Below are positions 1,376 to 49,061 of a stretch of DNA of 64,000 bases, in pieces. A program made the position numbers and the translations under genes. Position 1 is the stretch's first letter. Each line of letters starts with the position of its first letter. The notes beneath the pieces are model-generated. The model did not search any database and had not been told where the DNA came from. It saw only the letters and a list, made by a program, of their open reading frames with translations. The stretch lies in IMG/VR virus record IMGVR_UViG_3300028048_000002, positions 1 to 64,000 of that record; one strand, written 5' to 3'. The stretch is from a virus. Lineage: Duplodnaviria; Caudoviricetes.

Positions 1376-1783
1376 TTAAATTAAATGAAAATACACATCT
1401 GAAATTTTTGGATAGCCTAGATCATAATCATAAGTATTATTAGAATATGAATCTTCTGAAATTGTTGCAGTATATGGAATTGTAAGTATACAAGATAATA
1501 GATACTTACCATCTCTAACAGGCCACTTATCGGATAAAGCATCTAAAAGCATATCAAATAACTGATTAGAAGTTGCAACTAGCTCACCTGTATCTTCATC
1601 ATACCAATCTTCAAAGATATCATCTGCTGAATTCTCAAAGTCAATCCAATCAATACAAGATACAGGTTCATTATCTATAGTAATTTCTATGACCTTGTCT
1701 TCGAGAAATTCATAATAATCAGGATTCTGCAGATACTGATCATATTTATTTAAACTATCCGAAAAAGTAGCTAAAATCTTCAT
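1376..1783 (-). CDS. acidic hypothetical protein with MKILA leader (candidate head cargo)
   Basis: ORF track; coupled to the lysin stop codon; leader resembles those of the 3.6-7.7 kb array. Confidence 0.6.
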   Translation of the reverse strand: MKILATFSDSLNKYDQYLQNPDYYEFLEDKVIEITIDNEPVSCIDWIDFENSADDIFEDWYDEDTGELVATSNQLFDMLLDALSDKWPVRDGKYLLSCILTIPYTATISEDSYSNNTYDYDLGYPKISDVYFHLI

Positions 1784-1785
1784 CA

Positions 1786-2736
1786 TTACACCGCTTTAAT
1801 TTGAATAGCTTCAATAGAATGGTTGATTCCTACAGTACCACAAGCGTATCCAGCATCAATCCATCCGGTCCACCCAAATCCTGAAATATGACATTTGTAT
1901 TGAACTTTAAAGTTTTTAGGATTCTTAACGATATCAATTTCAAATGCTTCAATACCTTGTTTTTTACCTGTAGTACCAATGATAGGATCATTAGGAGATG
2001 AACCAGTACCTGAATTTTGACCAGCTTTTATTCCTTTGTATGTTTTCCAGCCTACATTAGCAATATGAGCTTTTACGTTTAGTTCCATTCCCTCAGGGGG
2101 TTTGATTTTAAAAGCTTCCATAGCATAAGCATTACCAACAGTGCCTGCAACTTGACCATCTCTTACAGAATCAAGCCATCCTAGATTAGCTACATGAGCT
2201 CTATAATAAAATCCGTTATTGTTAACAGCTTTTCCTGGCTTTTGTTTATTCACAGTATGCCCTTTCATCTTAGAAGATACAGCAGTTATAAATTGATTCC
2301 AGGTTCTTCCAAATTGGTTAAAGTACCCAATTGGATCAGTATGATCAGAACCACCCCAAGTGCTTGAACAATATGCATGGGATAGCAATCTACTAGTTCC
2401 CCATCCTTTTTTCTTAAGATACCAAGCTGCAAATTCAACAGCATTATCCCAAACTTGATTGAACTGAGTTGAATTAGTAGCATGACATAATTCAATACCT
2501 ACAGTAAAACCGTTAGCATTACCTACATGCCAACAGATTCTATTATCAGGACAGCAATGATATGCAATACCATTCCAATCCATGACATAATGAGCCATAT
2601 AATCAGCACCACCGCTAGACCAATAACTTACGTGGTTTAAGGCTGTAGCTCCAGGATTAGCGGTTTCATGTATAACTAGATATTGAGGACTGCATACACC
2701 ATGCCCGTTAGAAATTATATTTTCTTTAACTTGCAT
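1786..2736 (-). CDS. endolysin: Amidase_2 N-acetylmuramoyl-L-alanine amidase plus ChW-type cell-wall-binding repeats
   Basis: VIHETAN...AHY...WHVG...GIELC...SH...HTDP zinc amidase motifs; YRAHVANLGW / AHIANVGW / CHISGFGW...IEAIQI repeats; directly follows the holin. Confidence 0.88.
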   Translation of the reverse strand: MQVKENIISNGHGVCSPQYLVIHETANPGATALNHVSYWSSGGADYMAHYVMDWNGIAYHCCPDNRICWHVGNANGFTVGIELCHATNSTQFNQVWDNAVEFAAWYLKKKGWGTSRLLSHAYCSSTWGGSDHTDPIGYFNQFGRTWNQFITAVSSKMKGHTVNKQKPGKAVNNNGFYYRAHVANLGWLDSVRDGQVAGTVGNAYAMEAFKIKPPEGMELNVKAHIANVGWKTYKGIKAGQNSGTGSSPNDPIIGTTGKKQGIEAFEIDIVKNPKNFKVQYKCHISGFGWTGWIDAGYACGTVGINHSIEAIQIKAV

Positions 2737-2980
2737 TATTTTCTGCTTTCTTTTCAGATTTAAGCTGCTTTAAGAAAGTCTGTGCAGCTTGAGCTTCCGA
2801 AGTCATATTCTGGTTATACCACCAACCCCATACAATTGTTACTGCATTAAATATGACTAACACAGCTTGAATAGTAGCATCAGCATCAATCTTTACACCA
2901 TAAAGATCAAGTAAACTCGCAATAAACATAACAACTAATGTTATTATTGCCTTTATTCTAGTGATTGTTTCCTCTTTCAT
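2726..2980 (-). CDS. holin (SPP1-family-like, two transmembrane segments)
   Basis: Two hydrophobic helices, WWYNQNMTSEAQAAQ signature, basic C-terminus, overlaps the lysin start. Confidence 0.8.
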   Translation of the reverse strand: MKEETITRIKAIITLVVMFIASLLDLYGVKIDADATIQAVLVIFNAVTIVWGWWYNQNMTSEAQAAQTFLKQLKSEKKAENNAS

Positions 2981-3025
2981 AGTTATCTCCTTTAGTAGAT
3001 ACTTACATGATATATTTATGGAAGG

Positions 3026-3061
3026 TTCTGCGAATATACTAAATTCTGCGAATATACTAAA
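3026..3061. repeat. 18-bp tandem duplication (ttctgcgaatatactaaa x2)
   Basis: Directly visible between the recU stop and the holin promoter motif. Confidence 0.85.
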
Positions 3062-3560
3062 ACTCTATATTTAAATTAGAAACATAGGTTTGTAAATCAC
3101 CTGTATAATCTAATAATTGCTTTCTGCTAGCTTTAGTAGATATTTCAGAATACGGAATAGTCCAGGAATGAATTTTCTTGATATTTATTGATTTCTTCCC
3201 TGATTTATATAAAGCATCTATATCTTGAATATTTAAAATAAAAGCTCTTTGTTGAGTTGCAAATAAAATTATTATTAATCCATAACATCCTTTAATTTTT
3301 GATTTCTGAAGCAACCCTGCCCATTGAGTTTCAGAAATCATGGAAAAATCAAATCTATCAGAATATGTAGATTTAGATTCAATATAATAAATATTAGGAT
3401 ATTTATAGCAAATAAAATCGCATATATTCCTACTTACAGCATAAAATCCTGACATTTGATCAGGAATACGAGTAAAAGCATATCCATTTTTAGCATCATC
3501 TAACCAGTCTCTTAATTTTTGTTCTGCTTTTTTCCCTAAGCCATCATCAGGTCCTGGCAT
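3057..3560 (-). CDS. recU: Holliday junction resolvase, RecU-like (PD-(D/E)xK fold)
   Basis: GKKAE...RIPD...CDF...YIESKST...FS.ISETQ pattern and KSINIK C-terminus typical of phage RecU-like resolvases. Confidence 0.72.
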   Translation of the reverse strand: MPGPDDGLGKKAEQKLRDWLDDAKNGYAFTRIPDQMSGFYAVSRNICDFICYKYPNIYYIESKSTYSDRFDFSMISETQWAGLLQKSKIKGCYGLIIILFATQQRAFILNIQDIDALYKSGKKSINIKKIHSWTIPYSEISTKASRKQLLDYTGDLQTYVSNLNIEF

Positions 3561-3597
3561 CTACATCTCCTAAAGTCTATACAGGTTAAATCATAAA

Positions 3598-3636
3598 AAT
3601 AGAGTATCATATGAAATTAAGATATAATACTCTATT
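3598..3636 (-). terminator. hairpin at the end of the small-gene array
   Basis: aatagagtat / atactctatt inverted repeat followed by a T-run on the minus strand. Confidence 0.5.
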
Positions 3637-3644
3637 AATACTTT

Positions 3645-3989
3645 TTAATAAATATTTTCTGTTATGAAATCAGAAATAGCATTATCAATCATATATTCTA
3701 CATCATCAAAAGACTCTGAAGGTTCATCATAAAAATTTAATTTACAAGTAAATGATCCAATGTAGTTATCTAACCCTTCCATAACTTCAAAAAATACTTC
3801 ATTGGCACTCCAATTTAAATCATCTATCCAAATTTCTTTATTTTTCCAGCCACGTTTCTTTTTTAAAGTCTGTATTAATTTGTCCTTAGCATATTCTGCA
3901 ATTTCTATTTGCACATTTTCATCAGAAAGATTAAAATCAGTATTCATATATTGTTCTAATGAAATTGCAGTTCTGATATAAAATTTCAT
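3645..3989 (-). CDS. small acidic protein with MKFYIRTA leader (candidate head cargo)
   Basis: ORF track; start moved to the Met following the AGGTG Shine-Dalgarno. Confidence 0.65.
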   Translation of the reverse strand: MKFYIRTAISLEQYMNTDFNLSDENVQIEIAEYAKDKLIQTLKKKRGWKNKEIWIDDLNWSANEVFFEVMEGLDNYIGSFTCKLNFYDEPSESFDDVEYMIDNAISDFITENIY

Positions 3990-4003
3990 TAAGATCACCT
4001 TGT

Positions 4004-4237
4004 TTAAAGTTTTTTAAGTCTTCCAGAAGTTGATCCCCATTCATAAGTACCATCACGATTAATTTCAGTATATGCGATGGCTGCAATATTTCCATTGCTG
4101 TCATATAAAGATAAAGAAGTGGTAGGATGAGTAGCCCAATGTGGATCAGCTCTTAAACCTGTCTCAGATTCAATTTCACGTACAAGAGTTTTCCAATCAT
4201 TTTCAATATAATAAGCAGATCTAATATAACGTTTCAT
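4004..4237 (-). CDS. small protein with MKRYIRSA leader (candidate head cargo)
   Basis: AGGAG Shine-Dalgarno; shared leader. Confidence 0.7.
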   Translation of the reverse strand: MKRYIRSAYYIENDWKTLVREIESETGLRADPHWATHPTTSLSLYDSNGNIAAIAYTEINRDGTYEWGSTSGRLKKL

Positions 4238-4245
4238 TTAAACTC

Positions 4246-4506
4246 CTAACGTATAAAATTACGTACATCCATAAAATAGGTAGATCCATATTCAGTATAA
4301 TCTGAATAAGCTTTATCCCAGTTAGGATCGCCTCTAAATATAGAATCCATTTTGGATACATTACGATCTACAGTTGCAGTATTTTTATAATCTATATAGT
4401 ATCTATTAACAACTTTTTGAATTAAATCCCAAGCTTCAAATTTATCTTTAAATGAACTTAATTGAGTAGAAGCTTTAACAGAATTTGAAAGGATATATTT
4501 CTTCAT
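4246..4506 (-). CDS. small protein with MKKYILSNSVKAS leader; paralog of 5180..5380
   Basis: AAGGAG Shine-Dalgarno; shares the EA..lI.KV...Y ... S.FRGD.NWD.AY block with 5180..5380. Confidence 0.7.
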   Translation of the reverse strand: MKKYILSNSVKASTQLSSFKDKFEAWDLIQKVVNRYYIDYKNTATVDRNVSKMDSIFRGDPNWDKAYSDYTEYGSTYFMDVRNFIR

Positions 4507-4529
4507 TCAAATCTCCTTATTTACACTTC

Positions 4530-4817
4530 CTAATCCTCCAAATATCTTGAAGAGTCTTCTAGCATAGTTTCTTCTGTATCTCCATAATATGATTGCATAT
4601 ATGATCGTATAGTACGAATTCGAGAAATCATCTTCTCAATTTCAAAAGCAATATCTTTGATTTGAGACGCAGGATTATTAAGACCTTTACCGTTTAATTG
4701 ACGCCAAGTTGTCCAAGCAGTAGCATTCGCCATATCTAATTCATGCTCTAATGGAAGTAGATAATCGTTAGAAAAATCTAAATCCATGTTTTCAGAAGAT
4801 TTGATGTACTTTTTCAT
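4530..4817 (-). CDS. small protein with MKKYIKSS leader (candidate head cargo)
   Basis: ORF track; internal Met begins the shared leader. Confidence 0.65.
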   Translation of the reverse strand: MKKYIKSSENMDLDFSNDYLLPLEHELDMANATAWTTWRQLNGKGLNNPASQIKDIAFEIEKMISRIRTIRSYMQSYYGDTEETMLEDSSRYLED

Positions 4818-4825
4818 AATTACCA

Positions 4826-5146
4826 TTACTCTCTTTCTACTAAAAAAGTGAAAGCTGTACTTGCAGTTTCAAATCCTAACAAATCATTAGAATCCAAATT
4901 GTAATTATTTAGCAAAAATTGTCTATATTTATCAATCAATTTAGAATCTAACAAACTATCCTCAAAAATTTCTGTTAAAGTCATACCACTGAGAATATCG
5001 ATTGCAAACCATTTAGCATTTTCAGCAGATGATGCAGTTAAAACCCATGTTTGAATTACTTTATGGGACAATAAGCCCCTAATACCTTTAACGTAAAAAG
5101 ATACATGATAATCAGATTCAACATAAGTTCTAGAAAATATTTTCAT
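4826..5146 (-). CDS. small protein with MKIFS leader
   Basis: ORF track; packed within the array. Confidence 0.6.
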   Translation of the reverse strand: MKIFSRTYVESDYHVSFYVKGIRGLLSHKVIQTWVLTASSAENAKWFAIDILSGMTLTEIFEDSLLDSKLIDKYRQFLLNNYNLDSNDLLGFETASTAFTFLVERE

Positions 5147-5179
5147 GATACAATACCTGAAATATATTGTATAAATTCT

Positions 5180-5380
5180 TTAAAACTCTTCATGGAATCG
5201 TCTATAAGCTTCGTCCCAATTACGATCACCACGAAATACCGAATTAATATTCTCAACTTTAAGATCTACAGATTTAGGACCATTTACTAAATACATATCT
5301 ATTACTTTATTGATTATACTGTATGCTTCATTCCAATTTTCAAAAACACTTGAAGTTGTAGCTGCAACTACCCGTTTCAT
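5180..5380 (-). CDS. small protein with MKRVVAAT leader; paralog of 4246..4506
   Basis: GGAGG Shine-Dalgarno; FRGDRNWDEAY block. Confidence 0.7.
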   Translation of the reverse strand: MKRVVAATTSSVFENWNEAYSIINKVIDMYLVNGPKSVDLKVENINSVFRGDRNWDEAYRRFHEEF

Positions 5381-5433
5381 TTTCAACCTCCAGAAATTAT
5401 ACGTTAGAATCTCAAAGATTTTGATTTTCGTAA

Positions 5434-5925
5434 TTATAAAACTTTGTATTGATAATCAGATATTTCAATTGCTTTACCATTGTAGCACATACCTTCAAGA
5501 CATCTAAGCAAATCAAAAAAATCATCGATACCTAGACGATCAGCTTCATAAATAAGTCCACCAGGTTCTTCCGCTTCAGATGAACGTTTAGATATAATCA
5601 TACCTGAGCATTCTTTTGACACTAAATCCCCAAATTCTTCATAAGCTGTTTGACCAAAATAATCGTCATAATAACCTTTAGGTAAATTATCAGCAGCTAA
5701 TATATTTTTAGAAGAATTAACTGCACGAAGATTTAGATATCCTTGAAGCTTTCCAGACATCTGGGCTAGTTGAGCCACAAATCCAGAAAACATTTTAGCA
5801 TCTGCTTTATTTTCAGCATTAACTTGTAAATATGTCATGGCTTGCATAGCTTGATCTATAAGTCTTTTAGCTTCTAAATAGCCATCTCCAATATCAAATT
5901 GAGCAGTTTTTATAACTCGTTTCAT
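5434..5925 (-). CDS. two-domain small protein with MKRVIKTA leader and internal VNSS/ILAA linker
   Basis: GAGG Shine-Dalgarno; helical N-half and acidic C-half separated by the repeated motif. Confidence 0.7.
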   Translation of the reverse strand: MKRVIKTAQFDIGDGYLEAKRLIDQAMQAMTYLQVNAENKADAKMFSGFVAQLAQMSGKLQGYLNLRAVNSSKNILAADNLPKGYYDDYFGQTAYEEFGDLVSKECSGMIISKRSSEAEEPGGLIYEADRLGIDDFFDLLRCLEGMCYNGKAIEISDYQYKVL

Positions 5926-5934
5926 TTTAACCTC

Positions 5935-6183
5935 TCATAAGTCATAGATCGTTTTATAGAGACGCTCCGCTTCTTCTAGTAATTCATAAGAATCAAATAT
6001 ATGACCCTTAACTTTATTAACAATAGCAGATCCTCTTCCGAGGTTTGAGTCTTCAATCTGTTCTAGGCAATCTAAAATCTCTAGCAATTTAGTATTGCAG
6101 TTTTTAATCGCAGATAACTTTTGTGTACCCTCGAAATCTCTTTTATAATTGGTAGCTGAACCACATTTAATTATACGTTTCAT
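5935..6183 (-). CDS. small helical protein with MKRIIKCG leader
   Basis: GAGGG Shine-Dalgarno before the internal Met. Confidence 0.65.
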   Translation of the reverse strand: MKRIIKCGSATNYKRDFEGTQKLSAIKNCNTKLLEILDCLEQIEDSNLGRGSAIVNKVKGHIFDSYELLEEAERLYKTIYDL

Positions 6184-6197
6184 ACAATCCCTCACAA

Positions 6198-6641
6198 TTA
6201 TAGAGCAGAAGGTAATCCTAAGGATGCAATATATTCCGGATCATCGGTTACAGGTGTAAATCTAGTAGACATACCTCTAAAATCTACATGATAGTACTCA
6301 CCACCAATGTCAATGATAGGAGTTTCATAATCATCACGCCAATAAACAGGGCATTGATACATATCAGCATTATATCTATAAAGTTCATCATCTACAGACC
6401 ATATTTCACTTTCTATATCTTCTTCAGAATCATAGAAATCTGAATATGCATTTAAGAATTCTTCGTAGTTATTATATCTAATAGCTTCCTCATAAATAGT
6501 GTCTGCAGCTGTAATTTCTGCTTGATTAATTTGAGAATTAGAAATAATACCATTTTCTAGTTCCATTATTCGAGTTTCAAAAGCATCAATCATATCTTCA
6601 ATAGATCCAGTATTGCATTTGATATATTTATTTAATTGCAT
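6198..6641 (-). CDS. acidic protein with MQLNKYIKCN leader and internal ITAA site
   Basis: AGGAG Shine-Dalgarno; shared motif. Confidence 0.7.
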   Translation of the reverse strand: MQLNKYIKCNTGSIEDMIDAFETRIMELENGIISNSQINQAEITAADTIYEEAIRYNNYEEFLNAYSDFYDSEEDIESEIWSVDDELYRYNADMYQCPVYWRDDYETPIIDIGGEYYHVDFRGMSTRFTPVTDDPEYIASLGLPSAL

Positions 6642-6650
6642 AATTATCTC

Positions 6651-6899
6651 CTAAGCGATAAGCTGGTCAGCAATATCTTGTATGAACCCTTGTAAAATTT
6701 TTTCAATTTGATTAATAATAGTATCTGCTGAATCTTCATCTAATTGATCTAACCCACTAAGGATATAATCAAAATCAGATTCTACATCTTTTATTTTATC
6801 TTGGAGTGTGATTTCTACCTCATCATCAGCAGCTTCAATAATATTAGTTCTCATCGGAATACTAACTGAATTAGTTGCAGATTTTATAATACGTTTCAT
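6651..6899 (-). CDS. acidic helical protein with MKRIIKSAT leader and internal IEAA site
   Basis: GGGAG Shine-Dalgarno; shared motif. Confidence 0.7.
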   Translation of the reverse strand: MKRIIKSATNSVSIPMRTNIIEAADDEVEITLQDKIKDVESDFDYILSGLDQLDEDSADTIINQIEKILQGFIQDIADQLIA

Positions 6900-7748
6900 T
6901 TATTCTCCCATAGTTTCAAAGGGGTATTTCAAAGCAGCGATAAGATATTCTTTTTTAACTTGTACACCAGATCTATTTGACATCCAATTAAGTATATCAG
7001 CTTTGGAATTAAAATCGTCACTAGCTAGCATTTGGTCAACGTAATAATCAGTAATATCAACAACAATGAATTTCTTTGGAGTTTCACGTTTAATCATATA
7101 CCAAACAGTAGACTTAGATCTACTATTGTAACCTAGGGATTCAAGCGGTGAACCTTTAAGTGCAACAGGTTTACCTATGAATTCTTCAAGTTCTAATGCT
7201 CTAATCTGAGATTCAAAATCGGGACGATCTCGTCTAGAATCAGAAACAGTGATATAATCACTCCAAGAAGGAAGAGTCCTATTAAGAACTGATGCCCAAT
7301 CGACAGAATTTAGCAGGTCCAAAGTATATACAGTAGCTCGGAGAGATCGCATTTGTTCTTCCGTAGTAGCTTGTAATCCACTCCAAGAACCTGTTTCTTT
7401 GATAGGATTCCCTTCTTCATCTAAAGAGACGTTAAAATTCCAAGAAAGAGCTGAAGCTTCATCAAAATGACGACGTTCATTACATAGTATACGGACTTCA
7501 AGACATGCACTTTTAGCTGTACCCATGCGACGATAACGACTAGTAGTGCTTACAGTTACCTCAAAATCAAGCCAAGGGTTTTTGATCATATTTTCAACAT
7601 ATTCACGAACCGGCTGCATAACATCTTCTCTAGCTTGTTCATATGCAGCACGTTGCTCATCGTATTGGGCTTTGCGCTTAGCATAATCCGCATCATATTC
7701 ATCACGAGCACGACGAAGATCTTCTAGTTTACTAGAATATATTTTCAT
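6900..7748 (-). CDS. 282-aa hypothetical protein with MKIYSS leader and N-terminal coiled coil; first gene of the array
   Basis: AAGGAG Shine-Dalgarno; ACCTT motif 48 bp upstream. Confidence 0.75.
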   Translation of the reverse strand: MKIYSSKLEDLRRARDEYDADYAKRKAQYDEQRAAYEQAREDVMQPVREYVENMIKNPWLDFEVTVSTTSRYRRMGTAKSACLEVRILCNERRHFDEASALSWNFNVSLDEEGNPIKETGSWSGLQATTEEQMRSLRATVYTLDLLNSVDWASVLNRTLPSWSDYITVSDSRRDRPDFESQIRALELEEFIGKPVALKGSPLESLGYNSRSKSTVWYMIKRETPKKFIVVDITDYYVDQMLASDDFNSKADILNWMSNRSGVQVKKEYLIAALKYPFETMGE

Positions 7749-7804
7749 TTAAACTCCTTAAAATTAGTTAAGCATATACCATACTGTTATAATTAAAGGT
7801 AAAA

Positions 7805-8011
7805 TTACTCATCAAGAACTTCAATTGAAATATTATACTTATCCGCTTCAAGAAGGTAACTCTGCCCAGCAGATGAAAACCGAATTTCATTATCTTTAAT
7901 GGTGATATCCCTAATTATGTAAGTACGAATTCGCTCGTAATTCTTGAGCATATGATAATACAACGATCCGTCATCAATACGAGTGACAGTAAGTTTCATA
8001 TAATTAAGCAT
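7805..8011 (-). CDS. small hypothetical protein, probably early
   Basis: AAGGAGG Shine-Dalgarno and a near-consensus sigma70 promoter directly upstream. Confidence 0.7.
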   Translation of the reverse strand: MLNYMKLTVTRIDDGSLYYHMLKNYERIRTYIIRDITIKDNEIRFSSAGQSYLLEADKYNISIEVLDE

Positions 8012-8053: not shown

Positions 8054-8082
8054 ATTATACTGTATTAAAGCATAAAAGTCAA
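8054..8082 (-). promoter_or_regulatory. sigma70/sigmaA-type promoter TTGACT-N17-TATAAT
   Basis: -35 at 8082-8077, -10 at 8059-8054, 17-bp spacer. Confidence 0.85.
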
Positions 8083-8108: not shown

Positions 8109-9929
8109 CTATTTACGACCCAGAAGCTGAGCAAACAAATCCGGGTTATTATAAATATCTAATTTGTTATCTACAATATAATTAGCTACAGTTTCTTTTC
8201 CGTAAAGAATCTCATGAACCCTTTCATCAATAGTACCTTTAGCAAGAAGCGTGTAGATATTACATGTTTGTGTTGCTGAAATTCTATGAATACGGTCTAC
8301 AGCTTGTTGTCTATCCGCAGATGTCCAAGGTTCATCGTAGAAGATTATATTGTTAGCAGAAGTTAAAGTATGAGTAGTTCCGAGAGCACCAATGGTTCCT
8401 AATATGATTTTATATTCAGGATCATTTAAAAATAGATTTTTATTCTTTTGACGATCTGCCTCTGACATAGTACCTGTAAAGCTACATAGTTTGTAACTAT
8501 TAAAAAGATGTCGATAAATTGTCCTTAGGGGTTCAACCCAATTAGAGAATATAATCACTTTTTCATTTCTAGATATAATTTCAGCAACAATTTCTAGAAG
8601 TCTTTGAAGCTTAGCATTGTATTTGATATATTCGGAATCTACTTTTAGATTAAGATCTACAAGTTCAGGAGAGCCATTAACTTGACGAAGCCTTAGCATC
8701 TTAGCTAAAGGGTTAAGTGAACTAACTATATCTTCTCTATTTTTCCAAAGTTCATCTGTAATAGTTTGAGATAACTTGTTCTGATATGGCGTATTTTCTA
8801 CAAATTCGATAAATTCAATTTTATCAGGTAAATCTAAAACATCTTCTTTCAATCGTCTAATCATATTCGGTTGTAAAAGTGTTTTTAGTTTATCTATATT
8901 CTTATATCCGATAATTTCATAATCTCCGTACCCACCATAAACGCAAAAATTTTGATTCCATGCATAATATGAATTAATAGAATGCGCTTCAATTAATCTT
9001 AAAGGTAAGAATAAATCAGTAGGTTTGTTTACAATTGGAGTACCTGTCATAGGAATCCACATACTATTAGTTTTTGTAGCTTTCTTAATTCTTAAAAGCT
9101 GCTTACCTTGTTGAGATGAAGGAGATACATTCTTATGTACCTCATCAATAATGATCATATTTATAAAATGATTGTTTATTAACTCAATAATTTTATCTGT
9201 AAGTGAATATTTTCTATTTAACTTCATCCTTAAAGCTTCTATATTTAGGATCAAGAAGTAAGGAAGTTCATCTTCTGAATCATCACTATATTTTTTATTT
9301 GTAATTAAATCTGACAATTTGTCTTTAGATGATCCATTGTAATTAATTTTTCCAGATTTTTGCTTACGAGTTCCTAATATATATCCTTCATATAACCCAT
9401 TTGTTTGAGTTCGTATCTCTTGTTCCCAGTTATACTTTGAAACATTTATACAGCATAGAATCAAACAATGCTTAAAGTTGTGACGATCATGATTATATAG
9501 GGCTAAATTTAAACTTTCGAGACTTTTTCCAAGACCCATTAAATCCGTACATAAGAATCCATTCATATTGTGTTGAACTTCTTGCCTATATATTGCATAT
9601 TTCAAAAAGTCTATCTGATGTTCATATAGATGAGATCCAGGTTTTACATAAGTTGTTACACCAGAAATATCAATATTTGGAATAACTTGTTTTTCGTCTA
9701 AACTAGAGTTAACATCTAAGTGTTCAGTAGATTTTATAGATACCATATCTTCATAGTCAGTACCTTTAAATTGATTGATAAGCATACCTAGATGATTTTT
9801 AGGAATATACCAATATCTTTCATCGGAATTCCACTTTCTACCGGGTACTTCTTTTACAAGTTCTTTGATAGTATAATCATAAGGAAATGTAATATGATAA
9901 GAATCTTCATATTCAACAACGTTAATCAT
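8109..9929 (-). CDS. SNF2-family (SF2) helicase/translocase with N-terminal HARP-like domain
   Basis: DLMGLGKS Walker A, IIDEVH Walker B, MTGTP, QAVDRIHRI motif VI; N-terminal VKEVPGRKWNSDERYW. Confidence 0.9.
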   Translation of the reverse strand: MINVVEYEDSYHITFPYDYTIKELVKEVPGRKWNSDERYWYIPKNHLGMLINQFKGTDYEDMVSIKSTEHLDVNSSLDEKQVIPNIDISGVTTYVKPGSHLYEHQIDFLKYAIYRQEVQHNMNGFLCTDLMGLGKSLESLNLALYNHDRHNFKHCLILCCINVSKYNWEQEIRTQTNGLYEGYILGTRKQKSGKINYNGSSKDKLSDLITNKKYSDDSEDELPYFLILNIEALRMKLNRKYSLTDKIIELINNHFINMIIIDEVHKNVSPSSQQGKQLLRIKKATKTNSMWIPMTGTPIVNKPTDLFLPLRLIEAHSINSYYAWNQNFCVYGGYGDYEIIGYKNIDKLKTLLQPNMIRRLKEDVLDLPDKIEFIEFVENTPYQNKLSQTITDELWKNREDIVSSLNPLAKMLRLRQVNGSPELVDLNLKVDSEYIKYNAKLQRLLEIVAEIISRNEKVIIFSNWVEPLRTIYRHLFNSYKLCSFTGTMSEADRQKNKNLFLNDPEYKIILGTIGALGTTHTLTSANNIIFYDEPWTSADRQQAVDRIHRISATQTCNIYTLLAKGTIDERVHEILYGKETVANYIVDNKLDIYNNPDLFAQLLGRK

Positions 9930-11442: not shown

Positions 11443-12444
11443 TTAATACATCCCATTGTAGCGTATAGTTAGAAGCCAATCATCAATTAATTTCTGGATT
11501 TCATGATCAAAACTACCATAATATAAATCTAAAGTATCTGCATAATTAGCTAAAATTTCATCAGAAGTTAATGATGATTCTGCTAAAGCATTTAAGTCAA
11601 TTGACTGAAGTACATCAATTAAAGTAGAACTACAATTGTACCAAAGACTAGAATGTAATAACCATTCTTTCTGCCAACAGATACTTTGGATAAATGATTG
11701 TACATTACAGCAAGTAGAATCGCAATGCTTAATCAAATTTTCCAAAAGTATAATAGCAATACATTGAGCTTTCAATATTTCAGAAACATTATTACAGCAA
11801 GCAATAGAATCTAATTGATTAATCACATATGCATTTTCCGTAGGGATAATTTCTAAGCATTGTGGCTCTTCACATATAAGCTCTTGTACTTCATCACAAT
11901 CTAAAACTTCATCAAGATCATCAAAAGCTAGACTAGGATCATAGTTGCAATATACTTTTCCAAATTTGATTTCTTTACTTCCTTTTATTTTTGAAAGTTC
12001 AATTTGAATTTTAGACGCTGATGAAAAATCCATATCGGCAAATTCATCTTCTACGTTAAAATCTTCATTATCAAAATCCACTAATTCTTCATCATAAGCA
12101 TCTTTTGCAAATTCAGTTAATTTATCATCTATCTTATCAATTTTTATGTGAGGATAAGCTTCCTTCTTTCCGTTTTTAGCTAAGCAATACATGTCGTATA
12201 GATCTTTACGTCCGCTACTTTGAACCAGTTTAATTTTAATTTGATTTCCTTGTTTGGTTACAGCGGTAAATAATTCACCTACAGTTTTGCCTTCAGCATC
12301 AGTTACAGGTTCGGCATCTTTAGCTTTTATGCTACATTCGTTTAAGAATTTAAATACATCGGTAAATGCAGTAGATATACCTTTTAATATATCATAAACT
12401 TTTCCAGCTTCAACAGCCTCTTTAGATTCAAGTTGTATAGTCAT
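11443..12444 (-). CDS. hypothetical head-associated protein
   Basis: Next to the head genes, ACCTT motif upstream, GAGG Shine-Dalgarno, internal IKGS/VYCN/IACC-type motifs. Confidence 0.55.
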   Translation of the reverse strand: MTIQLESKEAVEAGKVYDILKGISTAFTDVFKFLNECSIKAKDAEPVTDAEGKTVGELFTAVTKQGNQIKIKLVQSSGRKDLYDMYCLAKNGKKEAYPHIKIDKIDDKLTEFAKDAYDEELVDFDNEDFNVEDEFADMDFSSASKIQIELSKIKGSKEIKFGKVYCNYDPSLAFDDLDEVLDCDEVQELICEEPQCLEIIPTENAYVINQLDSIACCNNVSEILKAQCIAIILLENLIKHCDSTCCNVQSFIQSICWQKEWLLHSSLWYNCSSTLIDVLQSIDLNALAESSLTSDEILANYADTLDLYYGSFDHEIQKLIDDWLLTIRYNGMY

Positions 12445-12500
12445 AGTACCTACCTCAATAATTAAATATAGATATATTTGATATTTAAGGTATATACATA

Positions 12501-12536
12501 AATAAGGGTCACAACCTTTCGGAAGTGACCCTTATT
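12501..12536 (-). terminator. intrinsic terminator after the capsid operon
   Basis: aataagggtcac / gtgacccttatt stem with a T-rich tail on the minus strand. Confidence 0.75.
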
Positions 12537-12571
12537 GGGAAAGGAGTAAGCCTTGCAGCTATTAAGCGTAA

Positions 12572-12892
12572 TTAACGGGAACGACGCACAGAACGACGAG
12601 CACGAGCACGGGTTGAAGCCTTAACAGATCTCTTCAGAACACGAGTTGAAGCCTCAAGAACTTCTTCGTCGCCTTCAGGCTCAGCAGTGAAGACTTCGTC
12701 ACCAACGGTAAACTCAACACCTTCCTCAGAAGCTTCAGCAACGACATCTTCACCCGTTACTTCAGCGAGGATTTCAGCAACATCCTCAGTTTCAAACAGA
12801 AGATCAGTAGCCTCAGGAGCTACTTCAGTATCAGCCATTACACGACGGCCACGATGTAACTTACGAGATGCAGCAATTTTCTTAACGCGCAT
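12572..12892 (-). CDS. prohead core/internal protein: acidic core between Arg-rich arms
   Basis: IAAS, VMAD, LEAS and VKAS motifs bracket the acidic core; codon usage like the capsid gene. Confidence 0.6.
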   Translation of the reverse strand: MRVKKIAASRKLHRGRRVMADTEVAPEATDLLFETEDVAEILAEVTGEDVVAEASEEGVEFTVGDEVFTAEPEGDEEVLEASTRVLKRSVKASTRARARRSVRRSR

Positions 12893-12903
12893 AATAAATC
12901 TCC

Positions 12904-13614
12904 TTAATTTACAATAATCATGCGATTTCTTTTACTTCCAAGTTCTTCACGTATCGAAGCTAATTCTTCATTACCCTCTTGCAGTAGAATTTCACCATCT
13001 AACGATACGTTAGACCCTTCAATAGTGTATTTAGATCTTGTTCTGCCTAAAGCTATTTTCATATTAGCTGTAGACATCCTAATTAGATAATTTAACCAAG
13101 TAGAATCTACTAATTCAGAAACATCTTGGAAATCAGGTACATATCGAATAGTAACTACCGTAGGTCTAGGATCACGATGTGTGCAATAAACTACTTGATT
13201 TAGACTATCGTATCTCCATTGGAAATCTGTAGTAACTGTATTTCTAACTTGAGCCATAGCCATTTCGGTCATTATAGGGTCAATATTAATTCCCGCATTG
13301 TTACCAATTGCAGAATATGTGTTTACAGCAGCAGCTGTTTGGAACACATTACCTGAATCTACAGTACTTAAAGTTAAACCAATTCTTGGATACGCAGCTT
13401 GCACGGTTAAAACTTTTCGAGCTTTGATACCTAAAGCAACAAGATCTAATCTAGTTGAAAAAGGTACAGTTTTTTCTACGGAGGTGCGTATATATCTCTT
13501 AAGTTCAGTAAACGCAATTTCTACCGCTTTTTCTACCTGTAACCCTTCAACGTTTTCGTTAGAAGGGAGACCTAACATAAAGCTTACTTGAGATACTATC
13601 TCGTTCATCTTCAT
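12904..13614 (-). CDS. neck / head-tail adaptor (T4 gp13-like)
   Basis: C-terminal LGRTRSKY...SLDGEILLQEGNEELASIREEL signature; downstream of the capsid gene. Confidence 0.72.
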   Translation of the reverse strand: MKMNEIVSQVSFMLGLPSNENVEGLQVEKAVEIAFTELKRYIRTSVEKTVPFSTRLDLVALGIKARKVLTVQAAYPRIGLTLSTVDSGNVFQTAAAVNTYSAIGNNAGINIDPIMTEMAMAQVRNTVTTDFQWRYDSLNQVVYCTHRDPRPTVVTIRYVPDFQDVSELVDSTWLNYLIRMSTANMKIALGRTRSKYTIEGSNVSLDGEILLQEGNEELASIREELGSKRNRMIIVN

Positions 13615-13658
13615 AATTACCATCTCCCTTCTATTAACGAAATTTAACAGTTAAGATA

Positions 13659-14024
13659 CTAAGCAGAAGCTTCTTCAGATTCACCGTCTCCAACTTCAAC
13701 AGTGAAACCTTGATCAGCTAAAGAAACACCCAGTTCTTTGTAGTATTCGATAACCTTCTCATCAGTTTCGGTTACCGTAGCACTACCATCACGCATAGCT
13801 GCTTTAAACATGATAGCATATCCGGGATGTGCAGTAACTTTAGAAAGATAGTTTACAAGACCTTCCCAAGTACCAAATCCTTCTACGTTAGTGTCCCAAA
13901 TAGTTCCAGCATAAGGCTCAGAATCTACATAAGAATTAGTAGGAAAATAAGTAGCAGAAATAGGAGCTACTACGCCATCAACAGGAGCAACAGGAGCGGT
14001 ATACGTAATCGTAATTGTTGCCAT
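13659..14024 (-). CDS. putative capsid decoration / head structural protein
   Basis: Directly after the capsid gene; GAGGAGG Shine-Dalgarno before MATITITY; high-expression codon bias. Confidence 0.55.
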   Translation of the reverse strand: MATITITYTAPVAPVDGVVAPISATYFPTNSYVDSEPYAGTIWDTNVEGFGTWEGLVNYLSKVTAHPGYAIMFKAAMRDGSATVTETDEKVIEYYKELGVSLADQGFTVEVGDGESEEASA

Positions 14025-14064
14025 ATCTTTTAACCTCCTCACGAATTAACTAAAGGGTTATAAC

Positions 14065-15519
14065 TTAGAATGTACCTTCAATCTTACCACTTATAACAGT
14101 TTCGGGATTGACAACGTTCAGAGCATACATGGTATATGCACCCATCTGCTGAGACATGTTGCCAAGACCAATAACATCAGTAGTAGCGACAGGGAGATAC
14201 TCACCGAATAGACCGGAGTTTCTACGGATGTCATCAGACTTGCAAGAGAGCACGTACTGAGTAGGATCATAATCCGGAGCCACATAGACTTCGAACTGAT
14301 CGAGGCGGCCTAGATGATAAGGACCAACGTTGTCCGTGCTAGTATCGGCAACGAATCCGTCAATCATTGCGACATATTCAGCTGCGATGGTACCGACAGT
14401 TAAGCGGTTCGGGCGGGCAAGGCGAGTGGACTGATAAACAGCAGCCGCAGCCTGACCCAGCTTCAGCTTAAACATGTTGAGATAGTCGCTAGGAACAACA
14501 GCACCGCTTAATACAGGGCTAGCATCCCAGTTAAACTGCGGCTTATAAGCAGCAGCTTGTGCAAGCTTGTTAAAAGCAGAGGTGTTAATTTCTGCGGTGA
14601 TTTCAGCGATAGCAGCTTCCTTAGCCATATCGCCAATATTAGCACCATACTCAGCTTGAGCTGCAAAAGCGCTATAGACGCTCCAATAGCAAGCAAGTTC
14701 ACGAGCTTCAGCTACAAGGTTGATCTCATCAAGCTGGAGGTAACCCTTAGCCATCTGAGCACCATATTCATAACCGTAACCCTCAGCGCTATCGTAACGA
14801 GGACCAACGTTCTCGTTGTCATACTGATAAGTAGCTTTTACAGCGTTGCCGTCAGAAGCCGCAGGAGCAGAGGTTAGAGTAAATGAACCAGTAGCATAGT
14901 TGATAGTACCAGCATTAGAACCATCAGCAGCTTTAAGGGTGCCAGCACCATCATCAGTATAAGCAGTAGTAGCGCCAGCAGCAACAGCTTGAATGGTTAC
15001 CGAACCCGGAAGCACGGGACCGTAAACAAGCGTATCAGTAGCTTTAATATCTGCACCTTCAGCTACAACCTCGTTCTTCACGATTCTACCAGTGAAGTTT
15101 GGATCAGTACCCTGACGGTTTACAAACGGGCTAGAAAGAATAGTACCAGCAGCTGTCTCACCCTTGGTGTTCTCAGCAATGAACTTAAAGTAAGGGATGA
15201 GTTGCTGACGAGAACGCATAGCAACTGAACCGAAAACGTCTAGAACTAAAAGCTTCTGAACGAACAGAGGCAGGAGTTCTAAGAAGTCCGGACGAGCCAT
15301 GATGTTTGTCGTGTTAGTAGCAGCCGTAATGGTCTGACCCTGGCGACGAGCGTTACGCTGAAGCTGCTGAGCGAACATGCGCTTTTCTTGAGAAAGGTTG
15401 CGCATCGTAGCAGACATAACAGGAGCAGCAGTGCGACGATTAGCACCTGCGGTAATTGACGTACCAGCAGTTACTGGATGAACCATGCGACGCGCTCCCC
15501 CTTTTCCTGAAATTTTCAT
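14065..15519 (-). CDS. major capsid protein, T4 gp23-like HK97 fold, with cleavable N-arm and a beta-rich insertion
   Basis: AEARELACYWS...AQAEYG...ITAEIN, G.LDQFEVYVAP, GLFGEYLP; follows the prohead protease; strongest codon bias in the window. Confidence 0.9.
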   Translation of the reverse strand: MKISGKGGARRMVHPVTAGTSITAGANRRTAAPVMSATMRNLSQEKRMFAQQLQRNARRQGQTITAATNTTNIMARPDFLELLPLFVQKLLVLDVFGSVAMRSRQQLIPYFKFIAENTKGETAAGTILSSPFVNRQGTDPNFTGRIVKNEVVAEGADIKATDTLVYGPVLPGSVTIQAVAAGATTAYTDDGAGTLKAADGSNAGTINYATGSFTLTSAPAASDGNAVKATYQYDNENVGPRYDSAEGYGYEYGAQMAKGYLQLDEINLVAEARELACYWSVYSAFAAQAEYGANIGDMAKEAAIAEITAEINTSAFNKLAQAAAYKPQFNWDASPVLSGAVVPSDYLNMFKLKLGQAAAAVYQSTRLARPNRLTVGTIAAEYVAMIDGFVADTSTDNVGPYHLGRLDQFEVYVAPDYDPTQYVLSCKSDDIRRNSGLFGEYLPVATTDVIGLGNMSQQMGAYTMYALNVVNPETVISGKIEGTF

Positions 15520-15531
15520 GTTATCTCCTAA

Positions 15532-16989
15532 CTAAAGAGTTACCAAATAGTTTTCATCATCTAAATCGCTGTTCCAAGCTTCACCAGTTTGTTGCAGTTC
15601 AGCAAACTCATCAGAAACAGTAATCGGTGCTGACGAACTTACTATCCTTTTCTGTAAGTCAGCAACCGAAGTCGAAGCTGTTACAGAAACATTGCTAAGA
15701 TTTACGCCAACAGCTTTTGAATATAAAGAAGCATACGCATCTTGATATTCTTCAATAAGCTGTTGTGAAGCTAAAATATCTTTCTGCAGTTCTGAAACTT
15801 GTGCATCCAAGTTAGATGCTTCTTCAAGAGCTTGATTCGCTTCAACAACGGTTTTGTCTAGCTCATCTTGCAATTTAGATATTTTATCATCACTGGCTTT
15901 AATCTTCGCATTATATTGAAGGTTTGTTTCATTACTAGTTTCTACTTCTTGTTTTAAATGCTTATTGGCAGCTGTTATAGTAGCTAATTTATCAGTTAAT
16001 TTTTGATTACTGCCTTCAATAACAGTTAATTTAGCTTCTAAAGATTTCTTATCAGATTTAAGACTTTGATTAGACGCTTTGATAGCTTTATTCTCTCGTG
16101 TAAGTTTTCTAACAGTTTGCTTTAACTCTTTGCAGCTTTGTATATATTGACCTTCTACATCATCTATATGATGTTCTTGATCAGCTACAATTCTCAACAT
16201 AGCATTAAGCTTCTTGTTGCTTCTAATGTTTTCGCTTTGTTGTTTTGCGTATAAATCCTCAATAACAGCTTCTGCTTTATCTGCACGAGCTTTTTCTTGT
16301 AAGTATAAATGCATGACTCCTTGAAGCTTTTCATCTTCTAATGAAGGCTCTGAGGTAATGGTATTTAATAATTCCTGCTTGCGGTCTTCTAGTTCTGCAT
16401 AAGTTTCAGATTGTTCAGGGAATTGACTTTGAATAACGTTTAAAGCTTCACAAGATGTGATGTTTTTTAAATCCAAGGCAACAGAGCTACATATTTTTTT
16501 ATATTTTGCTTGTAAATCAGAGTTTGTAGAAGCAGCAATTTCTGTAAATTCAGGAATAGCATCAGTATATGCAGGGAAAGTAACTAAATCAAATCCACGG
16601 AATACAAAAGTTTCAGGATCTACTGAATTATCTATGATGTCTCCTGCGCCTCTTACAGAAATTCCGAATGATACCCCAGCATCGATAAACGTTTTAACAA
16701 TACGACCTACAGGAGTATCAATTAAATCGAATTCTCCAAATACTTCACCGTTGTCATCAATATGACCTTCTCTCATAACAATGCAAGCATTCATAAAATT
16801 CATATCAGAAGGATCTTCAGGATGACCTAAATAGCCGATATAATGCCCTAAATCTAAAGCATTTTTATATATTTCAGAATTAAATAATGTTTCCCATACA
16901 GGTCTTGTAATATCTAATCCGTTTTCATTAGTTACAGTTGCATCAGCACATTTTCCAGAAAACGTACCAATTACTGTAGGTTTTTTCAT
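15532..16989 (-). CDS. prohead protease (T4 gp21-like) fused to a coiled-coil scaffold
   Basis: NENG...GYLGHP...DTPVGRIVKTFIDAGVSFGISVRGAG...FDLVTFPAY, then about 300 aa of coiled coil. Confidence 0.88.
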   Translation of the reverse strand: MKKPTVIGTFSGKCADATVTNENGLDITRPVWETLFNSEIYKNALDLGHYIGYLGHPEDPSDMNFMNACIVMREGHIDDNGEVFGEFDLIDTPVGRIVKTFIDAGVSFGISVRGAGDIIDNSVDPETFVFRGFDLVTFPAYTDAIPEFTEIAASTNSDLQAKYKKICSSVALDLKNITSCEALNVIQSQFPEQSETYAELEDRKQELLNTITSEPSLEDEKLQGVMHLYLQEKARADKAEAVIEDLYAKQQSENIRSNKKLNAMLRIVADQEHHIDDVEGQYIQSCKELKQTVRKLTRENKAIKASNQSLKSDKKSLEAKLTVIEGSNQKLTDKLATITAANKHLKQEVETSNETNLQYNAKIKASDDKISKLQDELDKTVVEANQALEEASNLDAQVSELQKDILASQQLIEEYQDAYASLYSKAVGVNLSNVSVTASTSVADLQKRIVSSSAPITVSDEFAELQQTGEAWNSDLDDENYLVTL

Positions 16990-17031: not shown

Positions 17032-17406
17032 CTAACTTTGCAAGTACTTCTTAGATAAGCGAACTATTCCACCAATTGCAAGTGTTTTTAACGCTTCTTT
17101 AATAATTCCACCGTTTACATCTTCTTGATATGTAGCTATATCATTATCAATTAATTGATCATAAGCATCTTCAGTTAACTTCTCTATCTTATCAATATCT
17201 TGTTCTGAAACGCTTATTTCCGTATCTAAATCTGCATTTAAAGCATAATACGAATCACCAACTTGCAATTGCAATACACCATCTAAAGATTCTGTCAAAC
17301 CTAATTCAAAATTTTTAAGCTCATCAATTTGCGATAAAAGATCTAAAATAGCAACAGGGGTATATAGAATTTCTTCTTGATTTAGTTGTTCTGCAAAAAT
17401 TTTCAT
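17032..17406 (-). CDS. acidic head-associated protein with MKIFA leader
   Basis: AAGGAG Shine-Dalgarno; directly upstream of the protease. Confidence 0.55.
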   Translation of the reverse strand: MKIFAEQLNQEEILYTPVAILDLLSQIDELKNFELGLTESLDGVLQLQVGDSYYALNADLDTEISVSEQDIDKIEKLTEDAYDQLIDNDIATYQEDVNGGIIKEALKTLAIGGIVRLSKKYLQS

Positions 17407-45186: not shown

Positions 45187-45666
45187 TTAAGGCAACTTCG
45201 TATAATCTGGGCATTCTAAACTATTTGGAACATAATTTGGATTACTTAAATTTTCTTCCGTATCACAATCTCCATCAATATACGATTGCAAAGGAGTTTT
45301 ACCTTCAACATAAGATTTAACTAGATTATGATCAAGATTCCAAGCATATTTAGTGTAGTCCCAATTTGTAATTTCTGGAAAATCTTGATACGAAGTTTTC
45401 ATAAATTTGTTTAATTCATTTTTCATAGTAGCATTAAGTTTCACTATATGCTTACCTTTATGTGGCTTAACATATTTAGGTGAATCAAATCTAATTCTGG
45501 ATATTGAAGATGAAGATGAATATGAATCACTATCATAAAATTTAAAATAGCAATCACCGATTCTATTTGAGTCAGGATTAACAGCTACCATATATGCTGG
45601 TTTGCTATTCCTGCCAATTGTAGTCATTGCATATACTTCTTCTGGATATCTTATTAACTTTTTCAT
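45187..45666 (-). CDS. hypothetical protein with MKKLIRYPEEVYA|M leader (candidate head cargo)
   Basis: GAAGGA Shine-Dalgarno before the internal Met; leader ends in V-x-A. Confidence 0.6.
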   Translation of the reverse strand: MKKLIRYPEEVYAMTTIGRNSKPAYMVAVNPDSNRIGDCYFKFYDSDSYSSSSSISRIRFDSPKYVKPHKGKHIVKLNATMKNELNKFMKTSYQDFPEITNWDYTKYAWNLDHNLVKSYVEGKTPLQSYIDGDCDTEENLSNPNYVPNSLECPDYTKLP

Positions 45667-45731: not shown

Positions 45732-46016
45732 TCAATGTCTAGCTAAACAATTTTGGCAATATTTTTGTTTGCTAGATTTTGGAGTATACAATTGACCGCA
45801 ATTTAAGCATGTTTTTTCAGAATATTTAGAATTACTTCTAGCTAATTTGGAACTACAAGATTTTGAACAAGTTTTTGGTTCATATTGAGCTTTAGCATTA
45901 TATGAAAACATTTTTCCGCAAACTACACACTTTTTATAATGTGGACCTGTGCAGTACTTACCACGTCCGTAATCTATGAATTCCTTACCACAAATTACAC
46001 AATGTTTCAATGCCAT
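45732..46016 (-). CDS. small zinc-finger repeat protein (three CxxCG...C units)
   Basis: CVICGKEF, CVVCGKMF, CLNCGQLY...KYCQNC. Confidence 0.7.
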   Translation of the reverse strand: MALKHCVICGKEFIDYGRGKYCTGPHYKKCVVCGKMFSYNAKAQYEPKTCSKSCSSKLARSNSKYSEKTCLNCGQLYTPKSSKQKYCQNCLARH

Positions 46017-46048
46017 ATTAAATTCTCATCTACTAGTCATATACTTAA

Positions 46049-46813
46049 TTATTCAGATACATCCGAAGTTTTAATTTCATTATCTATATCCCAAGGCAGT
46101 AAACCTGATTTTCTTTGTTCAAATATTTCATTTATACGCAAATAAGCTAAATATAAATTTTTAGCTTCTTCCAATGTTATTGGGTCTTTATAACCAAATA
46201 ACATATCCAATTCATGTAATACTAAATGCCCACCAGGAACTAAATTAATTAAATTTTCACACCAGTTACCATGATTTAAAGCAGGCATGAAACTATAACG
46301 AAAATCAGTACAGCGCTCCTCTTGTCCAACTGATATAAAGTCAGAATGTCTCCAAGAAGGCTCCTCATATAATTTATCCCAATGTTGCTCTGAACTAAAA
46401 TTATATGAACAATTACTGTAATTAGATTTCAATAGACCTGAAACAGTTACATCTACATAGGATACATGGATACGTTTAGACAAGCGTACTAACCATGCAG
46501 AAAATTCTTTCAAAGTATCATCATAGTATCTATCACGTAGATGGCAATTTAAAGTAATGATATAAGAAGATTGTTTATCAAACCAACCATGATTTTGATA
46601 TCTGTGTAAATTTGAAAATTGACCGAATTCATCATGATTACATGTTTGGTCGTATGAATGAATTACGTTTACATACCAATCCATGCAACCTTCAGATCCA
46701 GTAACTAATGGTAGATGGTCTAATACAGTATTAAGTACAAATGTCTTTGCATGCTGATTGTCCCCTACTGGACAAACTGTTATATTACCTCTAATTGATG
46801 TCCATGCACTCAT
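46049..46813 (-). CDS. hypothetical protein; true start MSAWTSIRG
   Basis: GGAG Shine-Dalgarno at 46820-46823; the longer track start lies inside another reading frame. Confidence 0.65.
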   Translation of the reverse strand: MSAWTSIRGNITVCPVGDNQHAKTFVLNTVLDHLPLVTGSEGCMDWYVNVIHSYDQTCNHDEFGQFSNLHRYQNHGWFDKQSSYIITLNCHLRDRYYDDTLKEFSAWLVRLSKRIHVSYVDVTVSGLLKSNYSNCSYNFSSEQHWDKLYEEPSWRHSDFISVGQEERCTDFRYSFMPALNHGNWCENLINLVPGGHLVLHELDMLFGYKDPITLEEAKNLYLAYLRINEIFEQRKSGLLPWDIDNEIKTSDVSE

Positions 46814-47039
46814 GGCGATCTCCGTTACTCTTATAGCCGTAAATCTTCTGTTCGTATACGTACCTGCATTGATAGCTGTGAATTTCTGCGCCACAGTAGA
46901 TGCAGTGGTACTTCTTGCCGTCTCACGAAACAAGCGGAACATATCTGATATGCTGATCGCAATCAGACGCAATTATGTCTATGTTCGTAAGTCACTTACC
47001 TTGCCAATAGCTGCCTAGCTTGAGATTCGTCCAGATCAT
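46791..47039 (-). pseudogene. 82-codon zinc-ribbon-like ORF interrupted by two in-frame TGA codons (pseudogene or TGA=Trp gene)
   Basis: TGATG-coupled start at 47039; TGA at 46994-46992 and 46925-46923; ends TAG at 46791; HCIYCG motif. Confidence 0.5.
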
Positions 47040-49048: not shown

Positions 49049-49061
49049 TAGACTCGTGCTA

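Follow-up and report, generated by a model that had tools for sequence, protein, structure and literature searches.

A short N-terminal leader on dissimilar accessory proteins of a cattle gut phage: a candidate capsid-targeting propeptide

Why do a dozen small and mostly dissimilar genes in one region of a phage genome begin with nearly the same few amino acids? The question is raised by positions 1376 to 7748 of the 64,000-nucleotide stretch of DNA analysed here (positions 1 to 64,000 of IMG/VR record IMGVR_UViG_3300028048_000002; the whole stretch is called the window below). An earlier note, made from the letters alone, had described 12 genes with a common short basic leader in this region and had read them as an expandable cassette of payloads whose leader is cut by the prohead protease. 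The leader proved to be a real, portable, and modular tag under protein-level selection; the payloads that bear it are accessory proteins, exchanged at a variable locus. The best reading, to which we give about even odds, is that it is a T4-style capsid-targeting propeptide, clipped by the prohead protease at an assemblin-like Ala/Ser cut site.

The window is the first part of one phage contig of 162,817 bp with direct terminal repeats, a GC (guanine plus cytosine) content of about 33%, and 221 called genes, about 204 of them on the minus strand. Public runs containing the tagged array are bovine gut metagenomes, and the phage is an uncultured phage of the cattle gut with a genome of about 163 kb. 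A nucleotide search of INPHARED with the phage gave zero matches, and the nearest deposited relatives of its capsid protein in this collection (Listeria, Bacillus, and Streptococcus myophages) are 24–28% identical.

The leader peptide and its carriers

All 12 genes were found as minus-strand open reading frames (ORFs), each with a Shine-Dalgarno site. Nine carry the clear leader form M-K-[RK]-[YIV]-[IV]-[KR]-[STC]-[AS], whereas the other three begin with weak short forms (MKILAT, MKIFSR, and MKIYSS), so that the earlier description holds for the ORFs and, in its clear form, for nine of the leaders. The short form MKI-x-[AS] occurs four times in the genome compared with 0.64 times expected, an excess that supports the membership of such genes only modestly. 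Genome-wide, the leader is carried by 31 genes (about 14% of those called), with crisp MKRYIK[AS][AS] copies at 69.4–92.9 kb of the genome, and the array in the window forms the lesser and more degenerate portion of this set. The comparison with shuffled controls, which the earlier note had suggested, gave a clear result: the pattern [YIV]I[KR][AS][AS] begins within the first 10 residues of 19 proteins, compared with 0.07 in shuffles, and just two internal copies were found in the 49,731 amino acids (aa) of the genome's proteins. The information content is 1.5–5 bits at leader positions 1–8 and at most 0.6 bit from position 9 on. The leader ends in [IV]-x-[AS]|[AS], typically [IV]-[KR]-[AS]-[AS], without Glu. 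A Sec or lipoprotein signal peptide was rejected by direct reading of the sequences, since the conserved part has just 8 residues, is followed by polar variable residues, and shows no hydrophobic core of at least 10 residues. The leader strings were not found in a literature search.

Such a start might reflect nothing more than translation, if MK and A/T-rich codons with Tyr or Ile at codons 4–5 raise initiation or early elongation while the peptide itself is functionless. Expression can be raised by an AAA codon at position +2 and by some dipeptides near the start, and in this phage Lys is the second residue of 63 of 204 proteins and the leader codons are A/T-rich. However, the fixed residues are encoded by freely varying synonymous codons (Arg is encoded by AGA, CGA, CGT, CGG, and AGG; Ile by ATT in 10, ATC in 9, and ATA in 7 cases), which argues for selection on the leader peptide, and positions 7–8 hold small residues only. 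Abundant structural genes, including those of the capsid protein and the tail, are untagged, and a tag was present on just 5 of 424 core-family proteins. Bacillus phage HSE3, a relative with a similar genome style and a protease 32% identical, has no such shared leader. Finally, there is a second, separate class of leaders, about 16 residues long, MKRTFTKYPSSY[IVL][KRQ][AS][AST], which ends in the same word Y-[IVL]-K-A-S as the short tag; it was found in the relative G004 (L063–L071) at 10231, 58572, and 72382, and also in L041, L045, and L051. Among the explanations considered here, a mere bias of translation start is to us the least probable.

The payloads behind the leader are mostly unrelated, as the earlier note had said: the sole paralog pair among the array genes of the window is 4246–4506 and 5180–5380. 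They are also often acidic, as it had said, yet this is not distinctive, because the median isoelectric point is 4.7 for tagged and 5.1 for other proteins. In the larger array, ten tagged paralogs at 80.3–92.9 kb of the genome (L001, L002) hold two to four copies of a 26-residue repeat (...GVDVS.YADPKY...) after the leader, and one untagged relative is encoded at 79585–79956.

Four genes outside the array had been named as further carriers, and they fall into different groups. The product of 51653–51913 (minus strand, 86 aa, start MKKVLVAS) is a paralog of a tagged protein encoded at genome positions 70815–71078 (MKRSIKAS). The gene at 45187–45666 (minus strand, 159 aa) starts with MKKLIRYPEEVYAM and resembles the long leader class of the relatives, MKRTFTKYPSSY[IVL]KAS. 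The remaining two, 12572–12892 and 17032–17406, belong to the head module, and the motif occurs in their relatives; they are described with the head proteins below.

The tag and its payloads among relatives

In IMG/VR, 57 loci encode a capsid protein 59–69% identical to that of the window. Four complete relatives were analysed whole, giving a set of five genomes together with the present one. The relatives carry 22, 13, 5, and 4 tagged genes, always on the coding strand. Across the five genomes, the 72 tagged proteins represent 59 payload families (BLASTP, E 1e-4), and 73 of 78 tagged proteins (94%) belong to accessory families found in at most three genomes. The expectation that relatives keep the leader while swapping payloads was borne out, as the tag is fixed across phages whose capsid proteins are just 60–67% identical, while the payloads turn over. 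In the DUF5662 family, tagged and untagged members exist, even as neighbours in one genome (G002, 19484 and 20123), and in the tagged member from G003 the tag comes first and the Pfam domain starts at residue 13. Searches with Pfam and PHROG on about 40 payloads from this genome and its relatives matched only LRR_5 and DUF5662, on two proteins of relatives.

The tag also has a narrow distribution. The pattern Y[IVL][KRQ][AS][AST] occurs 96 times in 2,126 proteins of the clade, 71 times within the first 15 residues. When 2.9 million IMG/VR contigs were scanned for the exact pattern, only 55 stretches were found, on the coding strand only; many of these lie on contigs with this capsid gene, and the remainder are largely from the same metagenomes. 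Judged by these scans, the tag is restricted to this clade.

The common start could alternatively have been inherited from one duplicated ancestor or spread by recombination, with the 5′ end serving as the joint of cassette exchange and the peptide as a by-product. The arrangement of tagged genes in arrays would fit such a history, as would the 10-member family with 26-residue repeats in the large array and the two paralogous genes of the window. Against it, the 59 payload families are mutually dissimilar, nucleotide identity within the tag is low, and the DNA upstream of tagged genes is unconserved, with the Shine-Dalgarno site as its sole common element; the fixed tag over changing payloads among the relatives is equally hard to derive from it. 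We consider this origin very improbable. Both common descent and start bias fit the data poorly.

The window array shows the turnover at a single locus. It is flanked by conserved genes, namely an SNF2-type helicase gene (8109–9929), the tagged families 6900–7748 and 6651–6899, and gene 3057–3560. Nine genes lie between 6651 and 3560; all nine are tagged and eight are without a homolog in the four relatives, which have one to about nine different genes in the equivalent stretch. The first gene of the block, 6900–7748, encodes 282 aa with the short variant MKIYSS; its family is present in all five genomes, its orthologs start with MKIIRCA, MKITCN, MKIISS, and MKITAT, and searches of Pfam and PHROG gave no match, while a search of the ESM Atlas returned only its own cluster. 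The next gene, 6651–6899 (82 aa, MKRIIKSA), likewise belongs to a family found in all five genomes, each time with a leader-like start. It is followed by 6198–6641 (147 aa, MQLNKYIKCN), which BLAST aligns weakly with a leaderless G004 protein (41% over 46 aa, E 8e-5), by 5935–6183 (82 aa, MKRIIKCG), an ORFan for which no homolog was found, and by 5434–5925 (163 aa, MKRVIKTA), whose single homolog, in G004, starts with MKRVITAG. Further downstream are 5180–5380 (66 aa, MKRVVAAT), 4826–5146 (106 aa, weak short variant MKIFSR), 4530–4814 (94 aa, MKKYIKSS), 4246–4506 (86 aa, MKKYILSN), 4004–4237 (77 aa, MKRYIRSA), and, as the last gene of the block, 3645–3989 (114 aa, MKFYIRTA). Gene 1376–1783 (135 aa, weak short variant MKILAT) lies apart, downstream of the endolysin gene, and its membership in the tagged set is doubtful. 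All these genes are on the minus strand. At 4292 and 6410, sequence of a strain with 95–99% identical DNA shows loose ends, which hint at a possible difference in cassette content.

Some features elsewhere in the genome were noted besides. A 44–46% GC island at 46000–49100 of the window holds six minus-strand genes, among them the two paralogs 47221–47514 and 48285–48638, and appears to be a recent acquisition. Simple ORF calling yields spurious plus-strand ORFs in this island; one of them, 48263–48541, starts with MKRLIRSI and was rejected as such a call. Neighbouring fibre-like genes have their first 10–14 residues in common (MGYLDENGLVY, MTDKY[LV]G), as in the pairs 51925–53169 and 53188–53448 of the window and 65039–66586 and 66596–68995 of the genome; these starts are probably conserved attachment ends with swapped distal parts.

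Head proteins, protease junctions, and expression signals

The head-module gene at 15532–16989 (minus strand) encodes a 485-aa protein in which the first 155 or so residues form a prohead protease that is fused to a coiled-coil scaffold. The protease belongs to PHROG 207 (E 4.7e-21) and reaches 23.4 bits for Pfam S77, below the cut-off of 27. Searches of PDB sequences with the protease (single sequence and profile) and with the capsid protein gave no relevant match, and the fold search alone succeeded: an AlphaFold model of the protease domain (predicted local distance difference test score, pLDDT, 81) has T4 gp21 as its best PDB match (5JBL, E 1.6e-5, template modelling score 0.57–0.60), followed by herpesvirus proteases. 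His56 in the word GHP and Ser111 in GIS are invariant in relatives. By its modelled fold, the enzyme is a gp21/assemblin-type serine protease, with His56 and Ser111 as the two catalytic residues recognised.

The major capsid protein encoded at 14065–15519 (minus strand) is gp23-like (PF07068, 54.9 bits, cut-off 24.4). Its basic N-terminal segment of 66 residues is a predicted propeptide and contains three to four conserved [IV]-x-[AS]-[GAS] words. The last of these, I-[TM]-[AG]|A-T-N-T, falls at residues 64–67 just before the conserved body in 42 relatives, in which the upstream P-I-x-A-[GS] words are conserved as well. Similar words mark the protease itself, where the junction with the scaffold, E-I-A-A-S-T-D, is conserved, the scaffold part holds internal KAIKAS and AKIKAS, and the N-terminal extensions found in relatives end in [IV]-x-[AS]-D. 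The last residues of the tag match a word conserved at junctions where the protease of this clade should cut.

Two small genes next to these complete the picture. Downstream of the capsid gene, 12572–12892 (minus strand) encodes 106 aa with an acidic core and basic arms bearing [IV]-x-A-[SDE] words (MRVKKIAAS..., ...RSVKAST...); core and arms are conserved in about 30 relatives, and the protein is a candidate processed head-internal protein. Directly upstream of the protease gene, 17032–17406 (minus strand) encodes a small protein that starts with MKIFAE. Proteins of this type have gained a tag-like extension in three sublineages; in the two besides that of the window, MKKVI[NH]AA... or MKKRYIRS... 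precedes the conserved body. In several relatives a small tagged gene lies immediately upstream of the protease gene. As a separate observation, many relatives (L030, L034, L035, L036, L039, and L062; about 11450–13500) have one or two inserted Cys-rich genes of about 560–670 aa, with a start like M..C..CG..F, directly after the capsid gene. The window is without one there, and a similar start was found at genome positions 76595–78289.

Under the capsid-targeting hypothesis, which follows the example of the T4 capsid-targeting sequence, the tag would direct its payload to the scaffold core during assembly. The prohead protease would then cut after residue 7, with Ile/Val at P3, Lys/Arg at P2, Ala/Ser at P1, and Ala/Ser at P1′, so that a seven-residue peptide would leave, and the mature payload, kept in the head, would pass together with the DNA into the next host. 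The block from 7748 to 3645 would be one such cassette in a variable locus, with payloads gained and lost among relatives. Cleavage, packaging, injection, and payload function are all steps that we infer. From the earlier reading, the portable tag on swappable payloads, the agreement of the tag end with the junction words, and the proximity to the protease gene stand. The proposed cut site, [IV]-x-[AS]|[AS], differs from the I/L-x-E of T4 and is nearer to the sites of herpesvirus assemblin. More tentatively, and with clearly less than even confidence, we suggest that MKRYIK[AS] loads dozens of unrelated fast-turnover proteins (up to about 14% of the genes) as a set of effectors injected with the DNA, and that the protease has a herpesvirus-like Ala|Ser specificity.

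Several results weigh against capsid targeting. Among 44 ortholog groups of the five genomes, the capsid protein and the protease lead in density of conserved [IV]-x-[AS]-x words with 9 of 17; since the reversed-motif control gave 6 of 17, this enrichment is largely compositional and was dropped as specific evidence. A depletion of the cut word inside payloads was not found, with ratios of 1.06–1.36 compared with 1.16–1.18 elsewhere. The head-protein junctions do not show the Tyr that the tag has at P4. The small protein upstream of the protease does not need a tag, because most copies in relatives are without it. The payloads are acidic, whereas the T4 internal proteins are basic, and 31 cargo species would be far more than T4 loads. 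A complex prediction for the protease domain and the 77-aa product of 4004–4237 scored 0.00, which gives no verdict and was not used as evidence.

The expression signals belong partly on the same side of the balance. A motif ACCTT at 7796–7800 (minus strand), 52 nt upstream of the start of 6900–7748, is a candidate late-promoter element. As the earlier note had stated, ACCTT precedes the block as well as virion genes: 21 genes have it 20–80 nt upstream compared with 8.4 expected, among them 7748, the holin gene, tail genes, and a head-region gene at 12444. Such a 2.5-fold excess does not establish late expression of the tagged block. Moreover, the top-ranking sigma-70-like promoters in the genome are found immediately before the two arrays (8082–8054 and genome positions 92939–92911), and the tagged proteins may therefore be early. 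The sigma-70 consensus scan was overall not above shuffles, and the top hits alone were used. The best promoter of the region, at 8054–8082 (minus strand; TTGACT-17-TATAAT, 11 of 12 positions), precedes gene 7805–8011, and early read-through into the block is possible, because no terminator-like site lies in between. Directly after the last tagged gene, 3645–3989, a terminator-like 15-bp hairpin followed by UUUUUAU was detected at 3590–3636 (minus strand; −20.7 kcal/mol, z −3.4), and none of 200 shuffles folds as well. A bovine gut metatranscriptome contains contigs identical to pieces of the array (3669–6801, depth about 3–4) and one contig of 3.3 kb from the capsid region (12546–15892, depth 13); as contigs, these data are mute on timing, transcript ends, levels, and packaging. 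A scan of the window with Rfam gave zero matches. Beside these signals, a motif TTCGTTAATA occurs upstream of further genes (1309 and 13639 in the window; 69386, 96818, 124295, and 139690 in the genome), and 11 sites of CGTTAATA lie on the coding strand compared with one on the other strand; next to TTGACT-N17-TATAAT and ACCTT, TTCGTTAATA may mark promoters of a third class.

Strong sigma-70-like promoters at the head of both arrays match the arrays of early host-takeover genes, and nearly all tagged genes are small accessory ORFans. The octapeptide could accordingly serve another process on accessory, possibly early, proteins, with no link to the capsid; it could be a common degron by which a host AAA+ protease removes these proteins at a set time, or a peptide that docks to a single partner from phage or host. 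Such a role would leave unexplained that the tag end matches the junction word of capsid protein and protease and that tagged genes adjoin the protease gene in relatives. Also, no candidate partner gene was found: a radical-SAM-linked tag was ruled out, as PF04055 was matched nowhere in the 162,817-bp genome, in contrast to 14 of 14 control genomes. We regard a tag for another process as unlikely, with a chance well above that of start bias or shared descent.

Were capsid targeting correct, a signal of only 7–8 residues would load the capsids of a rumen phage lineage of Shine-Dalgarno-using, low-GC hosts, and about 60 families of uncharacterised proteins would become candidates for effectors delivered by injection, which might act against defence systems or in host takeover. 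The injected proteome would be very large for the genome size. The Ala|Ser specificity, known to date from herpesviruses, would then also occur in the phage branch of the assemblin family, thereby linking phage and herpesvirus protease specificities, and the tag would provide a simple rule for spotting virion cargo in metagenomic phage genomes. If capsid targeting is false, an unusually clean, clade-wide N-terminal tag at the protein level still needs explanation.

Comparison with known systems

The closest parallel is the capsid-targeting sequence (CTS) of T4, MKTYQEFIAE, which undergoes a single cut and brings even foreign proteins into the capsid (PMC8442874); the T-even internal proteins have only this CTS in common (PMC3012670). 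Shared features are a short N-terminal M-K-x-Y peptide on otherwise unrelated accessory proteins (PMC8442874, PMC3012670), a gp23-like capsid protein together with a gp21-fold protease, a tag end of the type hydrophobic-x-small/acidic with Ile at P3, and variable payload loci. In contrast to the T4 system, the tag has 8 instead of 10 residues and Ala/Ser at P1 instead of the Glu of the [IL]-x-Glu motif; about 31 tagged genes stand against three T4 internal proteins; the payloads are acidic and without sequence similarity to the T4 internal proteins; and the protease is fused to the scaffold.

This fusion resembles the herpesviruses, which fuse protease to scaffold and of which pseudorabies virus has the assemblin sites YLQA-T (release) and VQA-S (M-site) (PMC4498786). 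As in pUL26-type assemblin, the protease domain of the phage is in-frame with the scaffold, E-I-A-A|S-T resembles the R-site, and Y-I-K-A|S of the tag resembles YLQA-T of pseudorabies virus (PMC4498786). The herpesvirus sites, however, lie inside the protease-scaffold proteins, whereas the phage tag heads dozens of unrelated proteins. We know of no cargo-tagging role of herpesvirus assemblin.

In the giant phages phiKZ and SPN3US, head and ejection proteins have N-terminal propeptides that a gp21-like protease cuts at A-x-E (PMC10052503). Common to both cases would be the removal of N-terminal propeptides from many head-internal proteins by the prohead protease, and two of those in SPN3US are short, with 20 and 24 residues (PMC10052503). 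The giant-phage propeptides differ in being mostly 111–254 residues long, in sharing no single short tag, and in having Glu at P1; moreover, their proteins were identified by mass spectrometry of virions, whereas those described here are predicted from the genome sequence. Overall, the system resembles the CTS and internal proteins of T4 yet fails the x-Glu motif, and it joins a T4-like capsid and an assemblin-like fused protease with an apparent Ala|Ser code.

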